Shown here: piece after piece, positions 1 to 50,633 of the stretch
Layout of the letters: each line of letters starts with the position of its first letter
Numbering within the stretch: position 1 is the first letter of the stretch
Origin: a phage
Length of the DNA: 50,633 nt
Direction: 5' to 3' (one strand)
Sequence record: NC_102605.1
Made by a program: the position numbers and the translations under genes
The notes under the pieces: generated by a model
Told to the model about the DNA's origin: nothing
Database searches by the model: none
The model's input: the letters and a program-made list of their open reading frames with translations, nothing else

Positions 1-77
1 ACGATTTCGGTTTTCTCACCACTGGCGAGCGCCTTTGCTGCCTCGCGTAGTTTTTCGGTAAAGCTCATGTTTTCCAT
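1..77 (-). CDS. Duplicate 5' end of the 50122..50595 gene (first ~26 codons) inside the assembly overlap
   Basis: Same AGGAG RBS and ATG as at 50595, carried in the duplicated 115 bp. Confidence 0.6.
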   Translation of the reverse strand, partial: MENMSFTEKLREAAKALASGEKTEI

Positions 78-115
78 ATGGTTTCTCCTGATTGGTTTTG
101 ATGTGTGCATTATGC
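1..115. repeat. Terminal direct repeat, identical to 50519-50633 (circular assembly overlap or terminal redundancy)
   Basis: First 115 nt of the window recur exactly at its 3' end. Confidence 0.9.
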
Positions 116-140
116 TTATGTGCTGGCGCATAGTCAAAGT
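105..140 (-). promoter_or_regulatory. Sigma70-type promoter TTGACT-17-CATAAT reading leftwards into the gene whose 5' end is at 77 / 50595
   Basis: Plus strand shows agtcaa (about 132-137) and attatg (about 109-114) with a 17-bp spacer; RBS and ATG follow about 30 nt downstream on the minus strand. Confidence 0.6.
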
Positions 141-574
141 TTTTTCTGTTGTTCTTATGTATACAATCAGAATATTGTTCTGTTTAGACGCCTTTTTGTG
201 TTTATTGCCTTTGATTTCAATGTTTTGCAGCGCGTTTTCAAAAACTACGCCGATTTCGGAACATACCCATATATATACATATACCCTGGAGCATACACAT
301 AACCATATAAAGTTAGAAAATATACGTGGGGTATCCCTATATATAGAGAACAAGCTAAACAAATAGAAACTTTTATAGATATATAAATAAAATTATCTTA
401 CTTTTTAGTATGTTATATGGTGATTCATTGTTGTTTTCTGTTTCGCTTTTTTACGGAAGGTAAACCCGTGAACATCGTGGAACGTTTTAGACAACGCGCA
501 AGACAGGGTGTGATGTTTTGCGGAAAAGTTTTCACGAGATCGGCAATGTGCAATCATTTCTACTCTCTCGCTAC

Positions 575-5897: not shown

Positions 5898-7478
5898 ATG
5901 TTTGACTTTGACACCAACAAATTGACACCTCAACAAGTTATAGCCATTGCAGAATCGCAGGGAACATCGCCGCTTCGCGTTGCTATTCAGTCGAACGGCT
6001 ACCGCCAATCGTCCAGCTTTTGGGAGCCTGTGAAGGATATCAACGGCGCTAATGACCGTTATCCTGTGATCTCTTTGGGTAATGATGTTGATGTTGTGGG
6101 TAAACTGTCACGTAGCATTGCTCAATCTGTTCAATTTCCTGAATCATCGGCCTATATGCATTTCATTGGTTGCGTTTCCGCCGCTATGGTTGGACGCTTC
6201 CAGGTTGAGTACCACGGCACTGAACAACCAACGGCGCTTTATGTTGTAACCAGTCAGCCGCCATCAACTGGTAAATCAGCAATCAACAGCCTGGCTATTG
6301 CGCCAATGGTCTGTGAAGTTGAGCGCATCAACGAACAACGCAAGAAAGAGCGAAAGAAGATCGCAGCGAAATTAAAAGGCGTTGAAAAGGAATTGAAAGC
6401 TGAACGTTCCGGCACTGAGTTAGCGGCGTTGTTTGAGGAAAAGGAGGAATTAGAGGAAAAGTTAGAAAAAATGTGCGATATCGTTTTTCCGGTATCAGAC
6501 ACCACGCCGGAAGGGTTAGCAAAGATCAACAATCGCCAGGGTAACTTTGCTGTTATTTCCGATGAAGCAACAAGCATCAACAGCTTACTCGGATTGACTT
6601 ACGCTAATAGTGATCGCAAGACTAACAGCGAATTGGTTCTAAAAGCATGGGACGCAGGACACGTTTCAATAGCTCGCGCCAATTCTGAAAACAATATGAG
6701 TTTTGTTGCGTTGGGCTGCATGAGCGTAATTGCCCAGGATGAAACGATAAAAGGGATCATGGATGCAGGGGCGCGGGGTATCGGTGTTAGTGAACGTTTC
6801 TTGCTTGTGCGTGAAAAAACAATGTTAGGCGAGCGTGTATTTATTGATGAAAATGGTGATCTTGATTACACGCCAGTTGATAAAGAATTAAAGGCGCAAT
6901 ATTTCCAGTTGATTCATAACATCATGACTGAACAAAATGTTGTATTGAAGCCGTCACGTTCTGCAATGCGTGTTCTTAATATTGCTCGCCAGCAATTAGA
7001 GCCAGATTTAGCAGACGGCGGAAAATATTCACATACAATGTTGCGTGGTGCTTTGGGTAAAATGGATAAACAAGTGATTCGTATTGCGTCAGTATTGCAC
7101 ACGATCCGCAATTGGTTTAATCCAAACGGTACGCCGCAAAAGTCGCGAGAAATTGAAGTTGAGACAATGCAAGAGGCTTTGGTGATGTTCAGCGAATTAA
7201 GCAAAACATATATTAACGCCGCGAATGCTTCCGGTCACGCTGGCGATGATGCCGAAATGAGCAAGTTAATTGAAATCATCATTAAGATCTCACGTCAAAA
7301 TAAAGGCGTTACCAATGCAAGAGCGATATATGAAAGTGCGCGTAAGGTTAAGCCGTTTACAGGTCAATCAGGCGTTATGAAACGAATTGAGGAACAATTA
7401 TTGCCAATGCTTGAAGAAAAGAATTATGTTTGCAGCGTTGGTAAATTTGTTTATGTCAATCCTGCGTTAATGGGGTAA
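5898..7478 (+). CDS. P-loop NTPase-like protein of unknown function, possibly DUF3987/replication-associated (526 aa)
   Basis: Walker A-like PPSTGKS, Walker B-like VISDE, charged coiled-coil KKERKK...EELEEKLEK; AAGGAGA RBS. Confidence 0.45.
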   Translation: MFDFDTNKLTPQQVIAIAESQGTSPLRVAIQSNGYRQSSSFWEPVKDINGANDRYPVISLGNDVDVVGKLSRSIAQSVQFPESSAYMHFIGCVSAAMVGRFQVEYHGTEQPTALYVVTSQPPSTGKSAINSLAIAPMVCEVERINEQRKKERKKIAAKLKGVEKELKAERSGTELAALFEEKEELEEKLEKMCDIVFPVSDTTPEGLAKINNRQGNFAVISDEATSINSLLGLTYANSDRKTNSELVLKAWDAGHVSIARANSENNMSFVALGCMSVIAQDETIKGIMDAGARGIGVSERFLLVREKTMLGERVFIDENGDLDYTPVDKELKAQYFQLIHNIMTEQNVVLKPSRSAMRVLNIARQQLEPDLADGGKYSHTMLRGALGKMDKQVIRIASVLHTIRNWFNPNGTPQKSREIEVETMQEALVMFSELSKTYINAANASGHAGDDAEMSKLIEIIIKISRQNKGVTNARAIYESARKVKPFTGQSGVMKRIEEQLLPMLEEKNYVCSVGKFVYVNPALMG

Positions 7479-14727: not shown

Positions 14728-15336
14728 ATGAGCGAAATCAAAATTGCCGCCTCAACTGGCGAAATAGACAAACGCACAATCAATGGTAACAACGGCGTAA
14801 GACGTGGTAAAGATCGCAAACGTCGCGCACCTGTTAGCGGTTATCTTGTATTAAAGGAAGAAGTAAGAGCCGGATTAAAAGCGCGGCTTGATGAAGTTGT
14901 CAACGCTTACGGCGGTTGCGCTGCCCTGGCGCGTGAAATTGGAGTTAACCTTAAAACAGTATGGGGATGGAAAGAGCGCGGCATGATTTCAACTAAAGGC
15001 GCTGAACTGATCCAGAAAGATTACCGCCGCAAAGGTTTTAACGGTTTCCGCGCTTCATATTGCCGTCCAGATATCAAGTTTGATAATAACGGCAAGCCAT
15101 TAGAGAATCGTTGCAGCAACAGAAAGCTGATGCGATTTGTAACCAAAGAGGAAGCGGAAGCAAGAGGATTTGTGCGGCCTTACGATCCGTTACGGTCTAT
15201 GAGTCCAGAAGAACGCGAGAAAGAGAAAGCGCGGCGCAAGGCTGAACGCGACAAGGCGAAAGAAGAACAGCGCAAAGCAAAGGAGGCCAATCAGAAGAAA
15301 CGCGTTGTGATTTCCGTCGATAGCACTGATTGCTAA
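14728..15336 (+). CDS. Cro/YdaS-like HTH DNA-binding protein with Lys/Arg/Glu-rich C-terminal tail (202 aa)
   Basis: HTH signature GGCAALAREIGVNLKTVWGWKERGMIS; AGGTGA RBS. Confidence 0.55.
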   Translation: MSEIKIAASTGEIDKRTINGNNGVRRGKDRKRRAPVSGYLVLKEEVRAGLKARLDEVVNAYGGCAALAREIGVNLKTVWGWKERGMISTKGAELIQKDYRRKGFNGFRASYCRPDIKFDNNGKPLENRCSNRKLMRFVTKEEAEARGFVRPYDPLRSMSPEEREKEKARRKAERDKAKEEQRKAKEANQKKRVVISVDSTDC

Positions 15337-15394: not shown

Positions 15395-16321
15395 ATGCAT
15401 TATCAAAAAGAAGAAGTTATCCCAAAGATGCGCGGCATGTGGCAAGCGGCATTGATGAAACTTTGCGATATTCCTCAATTAACATTTAACGGAAAGCATC
15501 AGCCTTGCCCTTATTGCGGCGGTAAAGATCGCTTTCGTTGGACTGACAAAATCAACGAGAAAGGCGACGGCGGAAACATTTGCAACCAATGTGGTAATGA
15601 TTCAGGGATCGGATTGTTCATGCGCATACGTGGTGAAAATTACAGTGAAGCAATCGACACGCTAGGCGAATGGTTAAACCTGGTTCCGGTTGAGGTTGTC
15701 AACAAGGCTAACAAAGCGGCAAAACGTGATTCCGGTTACAACTTCGGATCGCAAGCGCCTCATGAGAAATGTGTTGAGGTTATGGATAAAACTGAACGCA
15801 TGGAAATAACAAACCTAAGCGTTTTTGAGGCGTTTTATCCATTAGACGGCGAATCGTATCAAGTTGGCGTAAAAACTCATGACAATGGATATTGCGAGCA
15901 TATACACGCTATTCCTTGCCACCTGGTGCATAGTGATGAATTGGATGATGACATGTGCAATATTCTTTTCGTCAATGAGGAAGGTAAAAGCAGTTTTTAC
16001 GCGAAAGATTACACGCGCGGAAGCGTTGCGGTAACTGGCAAGACTGACAAAACAATTTACCTTTGCGTTGATTGGATTGATGCGCAACATATACACCTGG
16101 CGACGGGGCAAGAAGTATGGGCGTGTTTTTCACCTTCAAATCTTGAAATTGTTGCATACAGATACAAAGGAGATCGCAAAATGCGCGTTGTGTGCCATGC
16201 TAATGAACGCGATACTTTGATTGCTGCTGATGATCGAGAATTAGACGTAATGTTACCAGTTAACGGTAAATTCAAAAATGGAATAGAGCGGAGGCTTTAC
16301 AAGGCAAGTGACTTATTATAA
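15395..16321 (+). CDS. DNA primase-like protein (zinc-ribbon plus TOPRIM-like region)
   Basis: CPYCGGKDRFRW...CNQCG zinc ribbon as in primase-helicase Zn-binding domains; GGAGG RBS. Confidence 0.55.
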   Translation: MHYQKEEVIPKMRGMWQAALMKLCDIPQLTFNGKHQPCPYCGGKDRFRWTDKINEKGDGGNICNQCGNDSGIGLFMRIRGENYSEAIDTLGEWLNLVPVEVVNKANKAAKRDSGYNFGSQAPHEKCVEVMDKTERMEITNLSVFEAFYPLDGESYQVGVKTHDNGYCEHIHAIPCHLVHSDELDDDMCNILFVNEEGKSSFYAKDYTRGSVAVTGKTDKTIYLCVDWIDAQHIHLATGQEVWACFSPSNLEIVAYRYKGDRKMRVVCHANERDTLIAADDRELDVMLPVNGKFKNGIERRLYKASDLL

Positions 16322-20466: not shown

Positions 20467-21520
20467 ATAAAAAACCTTTGTATTGACGACGAACCCAATC
20501 AGGTGTTTGCAGGTCAATTTCCGGCTCTCCGTTTGCGTATGAAGGCCAACTGTCATTTGCCTGGCATTCTGCAAACTGGTTTATCACACTCATGTATTGA
20601 AGTCGTCCGATCTTCAATTGTTCATCCGTCATGCGGTATGCAATCGGTAAATAAGGCTCTTTCTTTTCCTGCGCCAGCAATCTGACTACTACGGGGCGCG
20701 TTTCTTCTGGATACGCTTTCTTGAATAGGTCATGCTGCAATGCCATTTTCAAATAGTAGCCGTGATTGAATGCCAGCCTTGCAAACTCTGACGGGTTAGC
20801 GCTTGACGTTGTTTTATAATCCGTGATCACAATCGCTTCATCAAATCGCGTTGTTTCATATACCGGATTACCATCACCATCATAGCCGGAAATCACTGTT
20901 GCAAGCACATCCTTGCAAATATCAACATGGTCAATCCTTACTTTTACTTTCACGCCTTTGATAGTGCCGAAAATTGATAGCTCGCGTTGTGCTGTTGGGC
21001 TATTCATGCAAGCGTTGTGTTCCGGTATGTTTTCCAGTACACGGCGCATGGTAACGCAAGCGTCGTAATCTTTAGCCGGAACCAATTCAACCTTATCCGC
21101 TCGTGCCTGGCTCTCTGCGATCATTTCAATCAGCCACTGAACATTAAGATCCTCCCCACAATCAACCATCATTTTTATCAGGTCTGGATAAGTTTTCCCG
21201 CTTGTACCAGTCAGGCCAAAAGATTTTAACTTGCTTGCTAATGCCGTTTGGCTTGTGATCAAGTTTTCGTAATCTTCCGGCGCTGGCGCTCGGCGGTACT
21301 CTTTTGCGAACAACTCACTGCTTTGAAAGTTGGTATGTGACTGCGTACCAAAAACAAGCGCTTTGCTTTCCTCGCGTGGTCTGTATTTCCATGCTGCCGG
21401 ACAAGTTGCAAAGATTTCCGCCAGGCTTGAGCCGCTAACGTATTCAGCCGCCCAACCTTTAGGATCGTGATATTCATCATTGGTTAACTGGTCAAAGGTG
21501 TAAACTTTAAAATCGCTCAT
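20465..21520 (-). CDS. PD-(D/E)XK-family exonuclease, recombination partner of Erf
   Basis: D...E.K nuclease core (ITDYKTT region); ATG after GAGAGGA; directly upstream of erf. Confidence 0.6.
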   Translation of the reverse strand: MSDFKVYTFDQLTNDEYHDPKGWAAEYVSGSSLAEIFATCPAAWKYRPREESKALVFGTQSHTNFQSSELFAKEYRRAPAPEDYENLITSQTALASKLKSFGLTGTSGKTYPDLIKMMVDCGEDLNVQWLIEMIAESQARADKVELVPAKDYDACVTMRRVLENIPEHNACMNSPTAQRELSIFGTIKGVKVKVRIDHVDICKDVLATVISGYDGDGNPVYETTRFDEAIVITDYKTTSSANPSEFARLAFNHGYYLKMALQHDLFKKAYPEETRPVVVRLLAQEKKEPYLPIAYRMTDEQLKIGRLQYMSVINQFAECQANDSWPSYANGEPEIDLQTPDWVRRQYKGFL

Positions 21521-21544
21521 TTGGTCATCCTCTCGTTGGTATGT

Positions 21545-21580
21545 CTGCATTATAGGTCTTTGTTGCATGTAGTCAATACC
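21545..21580 (-). promoter_or_regulatory. Sigma70-type promoter TTGACT-16-TATAAT for the recombination operon
   Basis: Plus strand shows agtcaa and attata with a 16-bp spacer; homologous to the promoter at 105-140. Confidence 0.6.
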
Positions 21581-21920
21581 CTTTAAGTGTTCTTTTTGTT
21601 TTACATACGTTTATAGCTAGCACTGACAACAAAATAACATCGTAAGTTTATGATTTTACTGATTGTTGTTTTTGTGTTCCATTGTTAACGCATTTACGCC
21701 GCATACCATATATAAATACATACCATGTGATATATAACCATTAACCAATACAAAACACACAACCACCACAAACCATAGAGAACAACAGAAACAAGAAGAA
21801 TACAAATAGATATATATAATAATAATTAAACTCTAAGTGTATGTATTATATAGATATTTAATTTGTTCTTTTTGTTTTCAAGACGTTTTCAATTTTACGC
21901 CGGATTCAGTTGTGAACATC

Positions 21921-21966
21921 GTGGAACAAAAGAAAACAAAATGCCCCGACCGTTAAGCCAGGGCAT
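21921..21966 (-). terminator. Rho-independent terminator at the end of the late operon (after J)
   Basis: 7-bp stem aatgccc/gggcatt followed on the minus strand by ttgttttcttttgtt. Confidence 0.55.
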
Positions 21967-21981
21967 TGATTTACCTCCTTT

Positions 21982-50121: not shown

Positions 50122-50595
50122 TTATTCATCCTCATTGTTGACAAAGTTGATTTTCACAAGTGCATGAAGCTCTTGCATTACTTTTGCTACGGTTGCGTAT
50201 TCTTCCGGCGCATAGTTTGCCAGGTTTGGCGATAGCGTCATAAAGCGCTCTGCTGCCTTGTTCACTGCCTGGCGCTTGTGCCGTTCAACGTCAGCCTTGC
50301 TATAAACCGTTTTACGTTTCTCATGAGTGAGTGTGATCTTGAATACTTCCATGCCGAAAAGGTTACTTTCGTCATCGTCGCACATTGTCTTTTTGATCTT
50401 GATAGTGCCAACCATTTTTACTTCCGGCACTCGTGACATAGTGGTGCGCACGTATGAAGCCGGATTATCAGATGATTTCTTTCCGGCTAATTCAGTAGCC
50501 AGGTAGCCAGTCGGGATCACGATTTCGGTTTTCTCACCACTGGCGAGCGCCTTTGCTGCCTCGCGTAGTTTTTCGGTAAAGCTCATGTTTTCCAT
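50122..50595 (-). CDS. Hypothetical protein (~157 aa), first gene of the leftward array driven by the 105-140 promoter
   Basis: Track 50122..50628; ATG after AGGAGA RBS (MENMSF...); 5' end duplicated at 1-77. Confidence 0.55.
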   Translation of the reverse strand: MENMSFTEKLREAAKALASGEKTEIVIPTGYLATELAGKKSSDNPASYVRTTMSRVPEVKMVGTIKIKKTMCDDDESNLFGMEVFKITLTHEKRKTVYSKADVERHKRQAVNKAAERFMTLSPNLANYAPEEYATVAKVMQELHALVKINFVNNEDE

Positions 50596-50633
50596 ATGGT
50601 TTCTCCTGATTGGTTTTGATGTGTGCATTATGC
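50519..50633. repeat. Second copy of the terminal direct repeat (identical to 1-115)
   Basis: Exact identity with 1-115. Confidence 0.9.

Follow-up and report, generated by a model that had tools for sequence, protein, structure and literature searches.

Paired AT-rich early-promoter modules as candidate replication origins in a Tls-like phage of the Drexlerviridae

Results

Two related noncoding regions precede leftward early genes

The phage sequence record NC_102605.1 comprises 50,633 nucleotides, and we call this whole stretch the window. This work concerns two AT-rich noncoding regions within it, at about 100-485 (copy 1) and 21540-21930 (copy 2), each of which ends in a strong leftward early promoter and which we term modules. 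BLAST searches against phage records place the window in the Tls-like group of the Drexlerviridae, with Escherichia phage Henu4_2 and Salmonella phages UTK0007, YSP2, and KKP 3830 as the best matches, and its gene order is that of TLS and T1. Positions 1-115 recur exactly at 50519-50633, so that the record is a circular assembly with a true unit of 50,518 bp, and the terminal repeat is the assembly overlap of a circular or circularly permuted genome. Owing to this repeat, the window contains two instances of the copy 1 promoter and of the 77 bases with which the downstream gene begins.

Copy 1 drives the gene at 50122..50595 on the minus strand (phrog_4841, function unknown), whose ATG at 77..75 and AGGAG ribosome-binding site make up a start region at 75..90 (minus strand; sequence and frame check). 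This is the first gene of a leftward early array of small genes, after which come the terminase, the structural genes, and a 1258-aa tail gene that ends at a rho-independent terminator (21967..21940). The right edge of copy 2 adjoins this terminator, which forms its outer boundary (21940..21967, minus strand; a 12-bp stem and then a T run in the terminator scan). The promoter of copy 2 faces the exo-erf-ssb genes, beginning with the RecE-like exonuclease (ATG 21520..21518; start region with ribosome-binding site 21518..21532, minus strand; alignment with RecE of TLS and T1, and TLS annotation). The annotation of TLS and the RecE alignment indicate that the phage encodes a RecE/Erf/SSB recombination system.

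An earlier note on this DNA had described a duplicated early-promoter module, one copy heading the small-gene array and the other exo-erf-ssb, and the description agrees with the 2024 re-annotation of TLS by German, Kropinski, Misra, and co-workers (PMC11447400). There, three intergenic sigma-70 promoters, P01, P51, and P57, are predicted; the first two, at matching genomic positions, correspond to the promoters of copy 1 and copy 2, respectively. Our consensus scan recovers both on the minus strand, as the note had placed them: TTGACT-17-CATAAT at 137..109 (feature 109..137; 10 of 12 positions; P01 in Supplementary Table S1 of PMC11447400) and TTGACT-16-TATAAT at 21576..21549 (feature 21549..21576; 11 of 12; P51). 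The accessible text of that paper lists P01 and P51 as -35/-10 matches only, and in the searchable literature, that text included, the homology of the ~400-bp regions upstream of them is undescribed.

That homology, in the same orientation, is borne out by alignment. The local alignment of 100-485 with 21540-21930 scores 42, against 13.1 ± 1.9 for 500 dinucleotide shuffles (z = 15.6), and an nhmmer search with copy 2 as the query recovers copy 1 (252-483) at E = 1.1e-7; chance likeness of AT-rich DNA is rejected by these figures. The original estimate of about 70% identity applies to the best local stretch only, 262-483 versus 21701-21927 (~220 bp; 63% of columns and 72% of ungapped columns). 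Overall, identity is 58% of columns (63% ungapped), and positions 179-256 of copy 1 are merely ~42% identical to copy 2. No third copy was found elsewhere in the genome by nhmmer with copy 2, nor at the third early promoter.

The two modules share an identical 16-mer, GTGAACATCGTGGAAC, which has exactly two sites, at 468 and 21912, and no further site in the genome even when 3 mismatches are allowed. It is equidistant from the downstream start codon in the two copies (-391 to -406 in copy 1 and -392 to -407 in copy 2). The 16-mer was also sought in relatives, as had been proposed, and occurs in IMG/VR at 16 loci, a handful of them Tls-like: both copies of YSP2 and one locus each in TLS, CF1, FSL SP-126, and one 45.8-kb relative. 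The remaining loci, which come from records that differ widely in size, are probably chance matches.

Hexamer arrays surround an AT-rich core

The modules are ~400 bp long and consist of hexamer arrays arranged around an AT-rich core, with the strong early promoter at the end. Read in the direction of the promoter, the order begins (in copy 2 only, after the upstream terminator) with two or three TGTTYN hexamers 10 bp apart from start to start, then a short GC-containing spacer, GGCGTAAA or CCGCA, and an inverted A-rich pair. Next come the AT core of 60-100 bp, two or three further direct hexamers, ~100 bp, an inverted hexamer pair, ~80 bp, and a second inverted pair inside an A-tract. The module closes with TTGACT-16/17-TAnAAT, GCA.ACAT, the ribosome-binding site, and the ATG, and the promoter fires away from the core. 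The earlier note had missed these 10-bp-phased hexamers, their two orientations around the AT core, and the concerted architecture that the family shares.

The 16-mer is the distal hexamer pair of this plan and reads, on the promoter strand, TGTTCC-acga-TGTTCA, with units 10 bp apart. In copy 1 it occupies 468..483 on the minus strand (GTTCCAC-GAT-GTTCAC; exact match search). Toward the promoter there follow, all on the minus strand except for the core, a T-rich block ATTGTTGTTTTCTGTTTCGC...TTTTACG at 427..454 with a TGTTTC hexamer on the plus strand at 439, which repeat search and alignment find repeated within and between the copies; the AT core at 337..436, flanked by AGAACA and TAAACA at 347-360; a GGAACA hexamer with the block CATACCCATATATATACATATACCC, common to copy 2, at 258..288 (alignments and hexamer map); and a promoter-proximal A-tract at 138..181, which adjoins the -35 element and carries two AGAACA hexamers (TGTTCT on the plus strand at 150 and 176; hexamer map). 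In all clades, copy 2 has the equivalent of this last pair at ~-80 relative to the ATG.

In copy 2, the distal block at 21893..21938 contains TTTTACGCC, the 16-mer (21912-21927), and a degenerate third unit, TGTTTT, that precedes the 16-mer pair (promoter strand TGTTTT-cttt-TGTTCC-acga-TGTTCA). Beyond the core at 21797..21896 lie the direct hexamers TGTTTC-tgt-TGTTCT (21779..21793), conserved at -280/-270 across clades, and then a region at 21675..21727 with the inverted pair GTTAACA-A-TGGAACA, the spacer sequence already named, and a CATACC..ACATACC block (hexamer map); this inverted pair is at -165/-157 from the ATG in all clades. The promoter-proximal A-tract AAAACAAAAAGAACAC, with a hexamer at 21588, occupies 21584..21612 (BLAST self-match and hexamer map). 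These blocks, the core aside, are on the minus strand, and the hexamers are given as on the promoter strand. An A+T-rich tract at ~-40 to -60 is thus found in both copies: AAGAACAACAGAAAAAAC adjoins the -35 element in copy 1, and AAAACAAAAAGAACAC lies ~10 bp upstream of it in copy 2.

Copy 2 also has an internal direct repeat, AAAACAAAAAGAACA, at 21588-21612 and 21864-21888 (88% over 25 nt), the former ~10 bp upstream of the -35 element and the latter just upstream of the AT core. The same arrangement recurs in other clades at ~-80 and ~-360 from the ATG.

The modules are enriched in the hexamers, and their cores are the least stable DNA of the genome

Together, TGTTCC, TGTTCA, TGTTTC, and TGTTCT have 158 sites in the window, of which 13 fall in the 707 bp of the modules against 2.2 expected (binomial P = 4e-7), and counts as high as those observed arise in none of 1000 dinucleotide shuffles of the modules; because the motif set was picked after inspection, these figures are generous. 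The densest 350-bp hexamer windows of the genome are the modules. With motifs read from their own modules, T1 has TGTAACA 6 times in 48.8 kb, all six inside its two modules, and TLS has 8 of its 19 GTGAACA/TGGAACA sites inside modules. The enriched 7-mers differ by clade (TGTAACA, GATTACA, ATAACAA, AGAACAA, GGAAACA, and GTGAACA), and each clade's 7-mers cluster again at the other copy of the same genome.

A nearest-neighbor stability scan of the whole genome in 60-, 100-, and 200-bp windows puts the cores of copy 2 and copy 1 as its least and second least stable duplex (z 4.3-5.1), the third-ranked site having z ~3. The copy 2 core (83-88% A+T) ranks first at all window sizes (z = 4.8-5.1), and the copy 1 core (80-87% A+T) ranks second at all three (z = 4.5-4.6). 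Both cores have the exceptionally low duplex stability of an AT-rich unwinding element. The core sequence CCTATAATA ... TTAGTTATATATATCTA is recognizable across clades and in both copies, and a perfect TATAAT is kept at the core edge in most clades.

The phased ATATATA blocks and bent DNA that the earlier note had proposed find no support: as judged by AA/TT periodicity, a simple proxy and not a full curvature model, the modules are not unusual, with AA/TT power at 10-11 bp in the 30th-95th percentile of genome windows and none in the top 1%. Since this periodicity is ordinary, bending by phased A-tracts is not indicated, and together with the extremely low stability this suggests cores that are easy to melt or flex and not intrinsically bent. 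The suggestion of a Fis/IHF-type site is likewise unsupported by the consensus searches. Both copies contain 0 Fis and 0 perfect IHF consensus matches, and in the two of them one-mismatch IHF sites (3 versus 1.6 expected) and DnaA sites are not in excess; a perfect IHF consensus is present in the core of some other clades.

The TATAAT at the core edge, and a GGAAGG-N7-GTG start at the 16-mer (468) that opens a 38-codon frame in copy 1, could be taken as signs that a small RNA or short peptide is made from the regions, an explanation that we regard as barely credible. In copy 2 the frame ends after 13 codons, the conserved TATAAT is preceded by neither a -35 nor an extended -10 element, and the sequence is too AT-rich for a stable fold. 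A search of Rfam gave no match for copy 1, and all the matches for copy 2 were below threshold (bit scores 19-23 versus gathering thresholds of 47-100, E 0.55-0.7).

The architecture is conserved across the Drexlerviridae, and the two copies change in concert

For comparison, we used 58 loci around recE and 78 around the gene for the DUF3987 helicase from IMG/VR, together with the whole genomes of TLS and T1. An AT-rich region lies upstream of recE in every clade, and a second one lies between two divergent early arrays; the module is present twice per genome across the Drexlerviridae. In other clades, the homology of the copies begins at the distal hexamers and extends over 340-380 bp to the A-tract beside the -35 element. 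Relative to the recE ATG, direct arrays stand at -424/-414/-405 and -280/-270 and inverted ones at ~-360, -165/-157, and -80, and these positions are kept to a few bp across clades with 62-100% exonuclease identity, including those whose RecE is only 62-83% identical. The hexamer itself drifts (TGTTCC, TGTTCA, TGTTTC, TGTTCT, and TGTTAT). Arrays of TGTTYN with 10-bp phasing are present at the 16-mer position in 40 of 57 relatives, and the distal arrays of other clades at this position include TGTTTCtcggTGTTTC and TGTTATttttTGTTCCtcgcTGTTCT. TLS has a helicase identical to that of the window; TLS copy 1 cannot be aligned with copy 1 of the window in its AT-rich part, yet it retains GTGAACA/TGGAACA units.

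In a 20x20 matrix of local alignments between copies 1 and copies 2, each copy 1 matches best, or nearly best, with the copy 2 of its own clade. The score is 69 for L057, versus at most 30 elsewhere, and 100, 77, 74, and 42 for L042, L031, L047, and the window. The two copies thus evolve in concert. Moreover, the motif varies among phages of the same hosts and does so at both copies together, a pattern better explained by a binding protein that the phage encodes than by a host factor such as Fis, IHF, or DnaA.

Such within-clade likeness is also what gene conversion would give. On this account, the modules are a duplicated promoter cassette kept alike by conversion, the AT-rich stretch is a spacer or insulator beyond a terminator whose sequence serves no specific function, and the repeats are by-products of the T/A-rich composition. 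An efficient RecE/Erf/SSB system makes conversion between 400-bp paralogues plausible, and relatives often break homology exactly at the module edge (486-525). Nevertheless, we think this account improbable. The copies are only 58% identical, yet the arrays and core hold their positions to a few bp, which argues for selection on architecture and not for recent conversion. Further, the regions hold more hexamers than their dinucleotide shuffles do, the TGTAACA of T1 is absent from the rest of its genome, and the core sequence is kept between clades that differ elsewhere. A MITE-like mobile element was also considered and rejected, as both copies are syntenic and co-oriented with the promoter in every clade.

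Two side observations concern copy 1 in relatives. Many phages that are 94-98% identical to the window elsewhere (GJL01, PHB07, Stevie, Brooksby, and others) diverge exactly at 486-525, just past the 16-mer, and their copy 1 is diverged, being ~68-70% identical to that of the window; as near-identity is lost exactly at the distal edge of copy 1, this edge acts as a mosaic joint. In two Webervirus-like loci of a Klebsiella-phage clade (L099 and L125), copy 1 lies within the region 3.6-5.6 kb upstream of the helicase gene and has a different repeat, TCTTACC / GGTAAGA, inverted around the AT core; the winged helix of their helicase has the recognition helix GVSKKIKE and not GVMKRIEE.

The distal edge of copy 1 has another neighbor. 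The T1 and TLS records begin at window ~600-650, ~120 bp past this edge, the TLS junction and proposed pac AGATTT map to window ~616, and the short tandem repeat CTAATCAAAT occurs three times at 571-601. The pac neighborhood therefore likely lies ~120 bp beyond the edge, as judged from these positions. One might then ask whether the modules are themselves packaging or recombination sites, that is, pac-related DNA for the terminase or hot spots that start recombination-dependent replication. We hold this to be very improbable. The pac-side repeats (~560-650) fall beyond the common module and are not matched at copy 2, which itself is 21 kb off between the tail gene and recE, and a headful series starts at one pac site (PMC11447400). 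Within 560-650, runs of TCAAA/TCACA follow the tandem repeats.

Candidate trans-acting proteins

The best candidate for a protein that binds the hexamers is the DUF3987 helicase (5898..7478, plus strand), which is predicted to have an MCM-like AAA+ core and a C-terminal winged helix (aa ~450-526). In the AF2 model, the MCM-like core is followed by an H-E-H-H-E-E domain that matches the winged helices of ORC/Cdc6, and the protein as modeled has the layout of iteron-binding initiator-helicases. This C-terminal domain diverges faster than the ATPase core (44-68% versus 63-84% identity). The helicase has no sequence similarity to P4 alpha, including its origin-binding domain, and a PDB sequence search with it gave no matches. 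In the sequences compared, covariation of the winged helix with the motif class is suggestive between T1-like phages and the TGTTYN clades.

Two further proteins deserve mention. The primase at 15395..16321 (plus strand) is homologous to the N-terminal primase domain of P4 alpha (BLASTP E = 2e-13, aa 34-273 versus alpha 31-262; Pfam Zn_Ribbon_Prim). Just upstream of it, 14728-15336 encodes a helix-turn-helix protein modeled as a Cro fold, which has no sequence similarity to the origin-binding domain of P4 alpha. Because a Cro fold suits palindromes better than head-to-tail repeats, this protein is disfavored as the binder of iterons. Suitable palindromes do exist: two adjacent 14-bp palindromes, AGACCAAACGGTCT and AGACCAATCGGTCT (AGACCnnnnGGTCT twice), at 700-727, are unique in the genome, are conserved in TLS, and lie 10 bp upstream of the first copy (737-755) of a 21-nt repeat in the rightward early array. 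A dimeric regulator, for instance the Cro-like protein, likely uses them as its operator.

Discussion

An AT-rich region flanked on either side by clusters of short repeats, oppositely oriented, is the anatomy of an iteron origin, and the modules have it, with repeats that are degenerate and were defined post hoc. We tentatively interpret the modules as a pair of replication origins, each composed of iterons and an unwinding element and coupled to an early promoter; in our judgment, this interpretation falls a little short of an even chance. Under this interpretation, a phage-encoded protein would bind the hexamers on both sides of the core and open the core. The leading candidate for this protein is the DUF3987 helicase, which would act through its predicted winged helix. 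The helicase would then load itself, and the primase of the P4 alpha type would prime synthesis. The outward-firing early promoter may help by leaving negative supercoils behind the polymerase, and the two copies may act as two origins or as a pair like ori and crr of P4. The copies would stay alike, we propose, because both must fit the same binding protein.

Extended to the family, the interpretation becomes a shade more tentative. Origins of the T1 type would be a co-evolving pair, activated by promoters and recognized by the winged helix of a self-loading MCM-like helicase, with a specificity that drifts by clade. The clade-specific form of this drift, to which we assign the same somewhat lower standing, would run through TGTTCA/TGTTCC, TGTTTC, TGTTAT, TGTAACA, and TCTTACC, with both origins tracking each change.

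A coupling of origins to transcription has precedents. The lambda ori with pR and oriC with gidA are activated by adjacent transcription, a strong promoter reading away from an AT-rich unwinding element. In the twin-domain model, a promoter that reads away leaves negative supercoils over the element behind it. The lambda ori and oriC rely on the lambda O protein or DnaA with their own repeats, and the modules, unlike DnaA-type origins, have no excess of DnaA boxes.

The closest parallels in anatomy are found in satellite elements. In the pathogenicity islands of Staphylococcus aureus (SaPIs), the C-terminal winged helix of Rep initiator-helicases binds penta- or hexanucleotide iterons that flank a central AT-rich region in opposite orientations, with at least two iterons per side, and Rep is a self-loading hexameric helicase, one class of which is MCM-like (SF6) (PMC9371898). 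The modules share the iteron/AT-region anatomy of SaPI and PICI origins, and the DUF3987 helicase shares the layout as predicted from its model. The systems also differ. A SaPI origin occurs once per element, directly downstream of rep, whereas the phage modules are two, lie 5-14 kb from the helicase gene, are fused to outward-firing early promoters, and have a larger span of ~350 bp; in the phage, binding of the hexamers is predicted only.

The second parallel is P4, whose GenBank record annotates an 'ori type 1 repeat', GGTGAACA, in ori, with 10-11-bp phasing, and also in crr (the 'cis required region for replication'), which lies 4.7 kb from ori. The iteron core of P4, GTGAACA, is the Tls-type unit, and in both cases the units have 9-11-bp phasing and occupy two separate loci. 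Compared with the P4 type 1 iteron TGTTCACC, the window has GTGAACA in 10-bp phase at both loci, with one or two exact copies per locus and a different eighth base. The primase homology is a further link. In contrast, alpha is one polypeptide with primase, SF3 helicase, and winged helix, whereas the phage primase and MCM-like helicase are separate; P4 iterons are 8-mers with five or six copies per cluster; crr is a tandem 120-bp duplication; and other clades of the Drexlerviridae use different hexamers. Our literature searches on T1-family origins, early transcript maps, and P4 iterons gave nothing usable beyond the TLS, SU57, and SaPI papers. For TLS, pac was placed by restriction mapping, and the paper reports that no iteron-type repeats or origin were found (PMC11447400). 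The SU57 genome paper likewise found no origin of replication (PMC7718038).

Several points weigh against the modules as origins. The link of the sites to replication is drawn from sequence, and the hexamers are short, degenerate, and T/A-rich, with a motif set defined after seeing the data. The modules are not beside the helicase gene (5898-7478), copy 1 being ~5.4 kb and copy 2 ~14 kb away. Covariation of the winged helix with the motif is weak, as it rests on few clades and is confounded by phylogeny, and one clade (L071) combines a different recognition helix with the same motif class. The recognition helix of the Cro-like protein varies too, and this protein may be the hexamer binder. Divergent transcription accounts for the GC-skew minimum at copy 1; GC skew was dropped as origin evidence because it follows gene orientation and is uninformative. 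Finally, a promoter accompanies the module in every case, at a constant distance, and one hexamer pair adjoins the -35 element, as for a transcription-factor site or an UP element.

This last point leads to the principal alternative, that the modules are only the control regions of two co-regulated early promoters, the hexamers being bound over ~350 bp by one regulator. A phage or host protein would wrap or loop the flexible AT core and in this way switch P01 and P51 on or off jointly, and the copies would stay similar because one regulator acts on both. In all clades, each copy has a near-consensus sigma-70 promoter at a fixed distance, with homology up to the -35 element, and the hexamer pair in the A-tract is at the position of an UP element or class-I activator site, ~-80 from the ATG. 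Two of just three canonical sigma-70 promoters predicted for TLS in PMC11447400 carry the module, the leaders of both copies are similar (TAnAATGCA.ACAT), and the promoter core in copy 1 of T1 has the motif GTGTAACAC..GTGTTACA on its flanks, in the manner of an operator. We nonetheless find promoter control by itself rather unlikely. Sites 160-420 bp upstream would be unusual for bacterial or phage activation, and such control has no need for the least stable DNA of the genome between oppositely oriented arrays. The third early promoter, P57, is without a module. The sole dedicated regulator found, the Cro-like protein, is expected on palindromes, such as the unique tandem one at 700-727, and the modules have neither Fis/IHF consensus sites nor A-tract phasing. 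The origin and promoter-control readings can, moreover, both hold, since iteron origins frequently serve as operators of promoters as well.

T1 belongs to the original T phages, and phages related to it are common contaminants in laboratories and fermentations as well as candidates for therapy. In this family, which has no located origin, the modules are precise origin candidates of ~100 bp each. If they are origins, they would show by what route, in the absence of DnaA-type sites, replication begins in a virulent phage whose helicase is MCM-like and whose primase is of the P4 type. In that case they would also be a natural example of a pair of origins co-evolving with a single initiator and would account for the mosaic joints at the module edge. 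If their role is instead to control promoters, they set out the cis-logic by which the family runs its early program, and they would offer strong, portable, co-regulated promoters.

Two minor observations remain. The genome has 578 GATC sites, ~3 times the random expectation, and encodes a Dam-type methylase; in both modules (100-490 and 21540-21935; 787 bp), there are zero, with ~9 expected pro rata, a depletion for which low G+C accounts in part. The other concerns the 21-nt direct repeat aaATAGCACnnnTTGnTAAAA, which was described for TLS (PMC11447400). This repeat (aaATAGCACnnnTTGnTAAAA; ATAGCACnnnTTGnTAAAA), characterized by a position ~76 nt upstream of a start codon, has 21 copies in the window, 0 of them inside the modules; the nearest is at 737-755, and others are at, for example, 1247, 2800, 5147, 10883, 20446, 44005, and 49284. 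The copies are oriented with transcription, and after them come a hairpin, then a TATAAT-like box and a ribosome-binding site.

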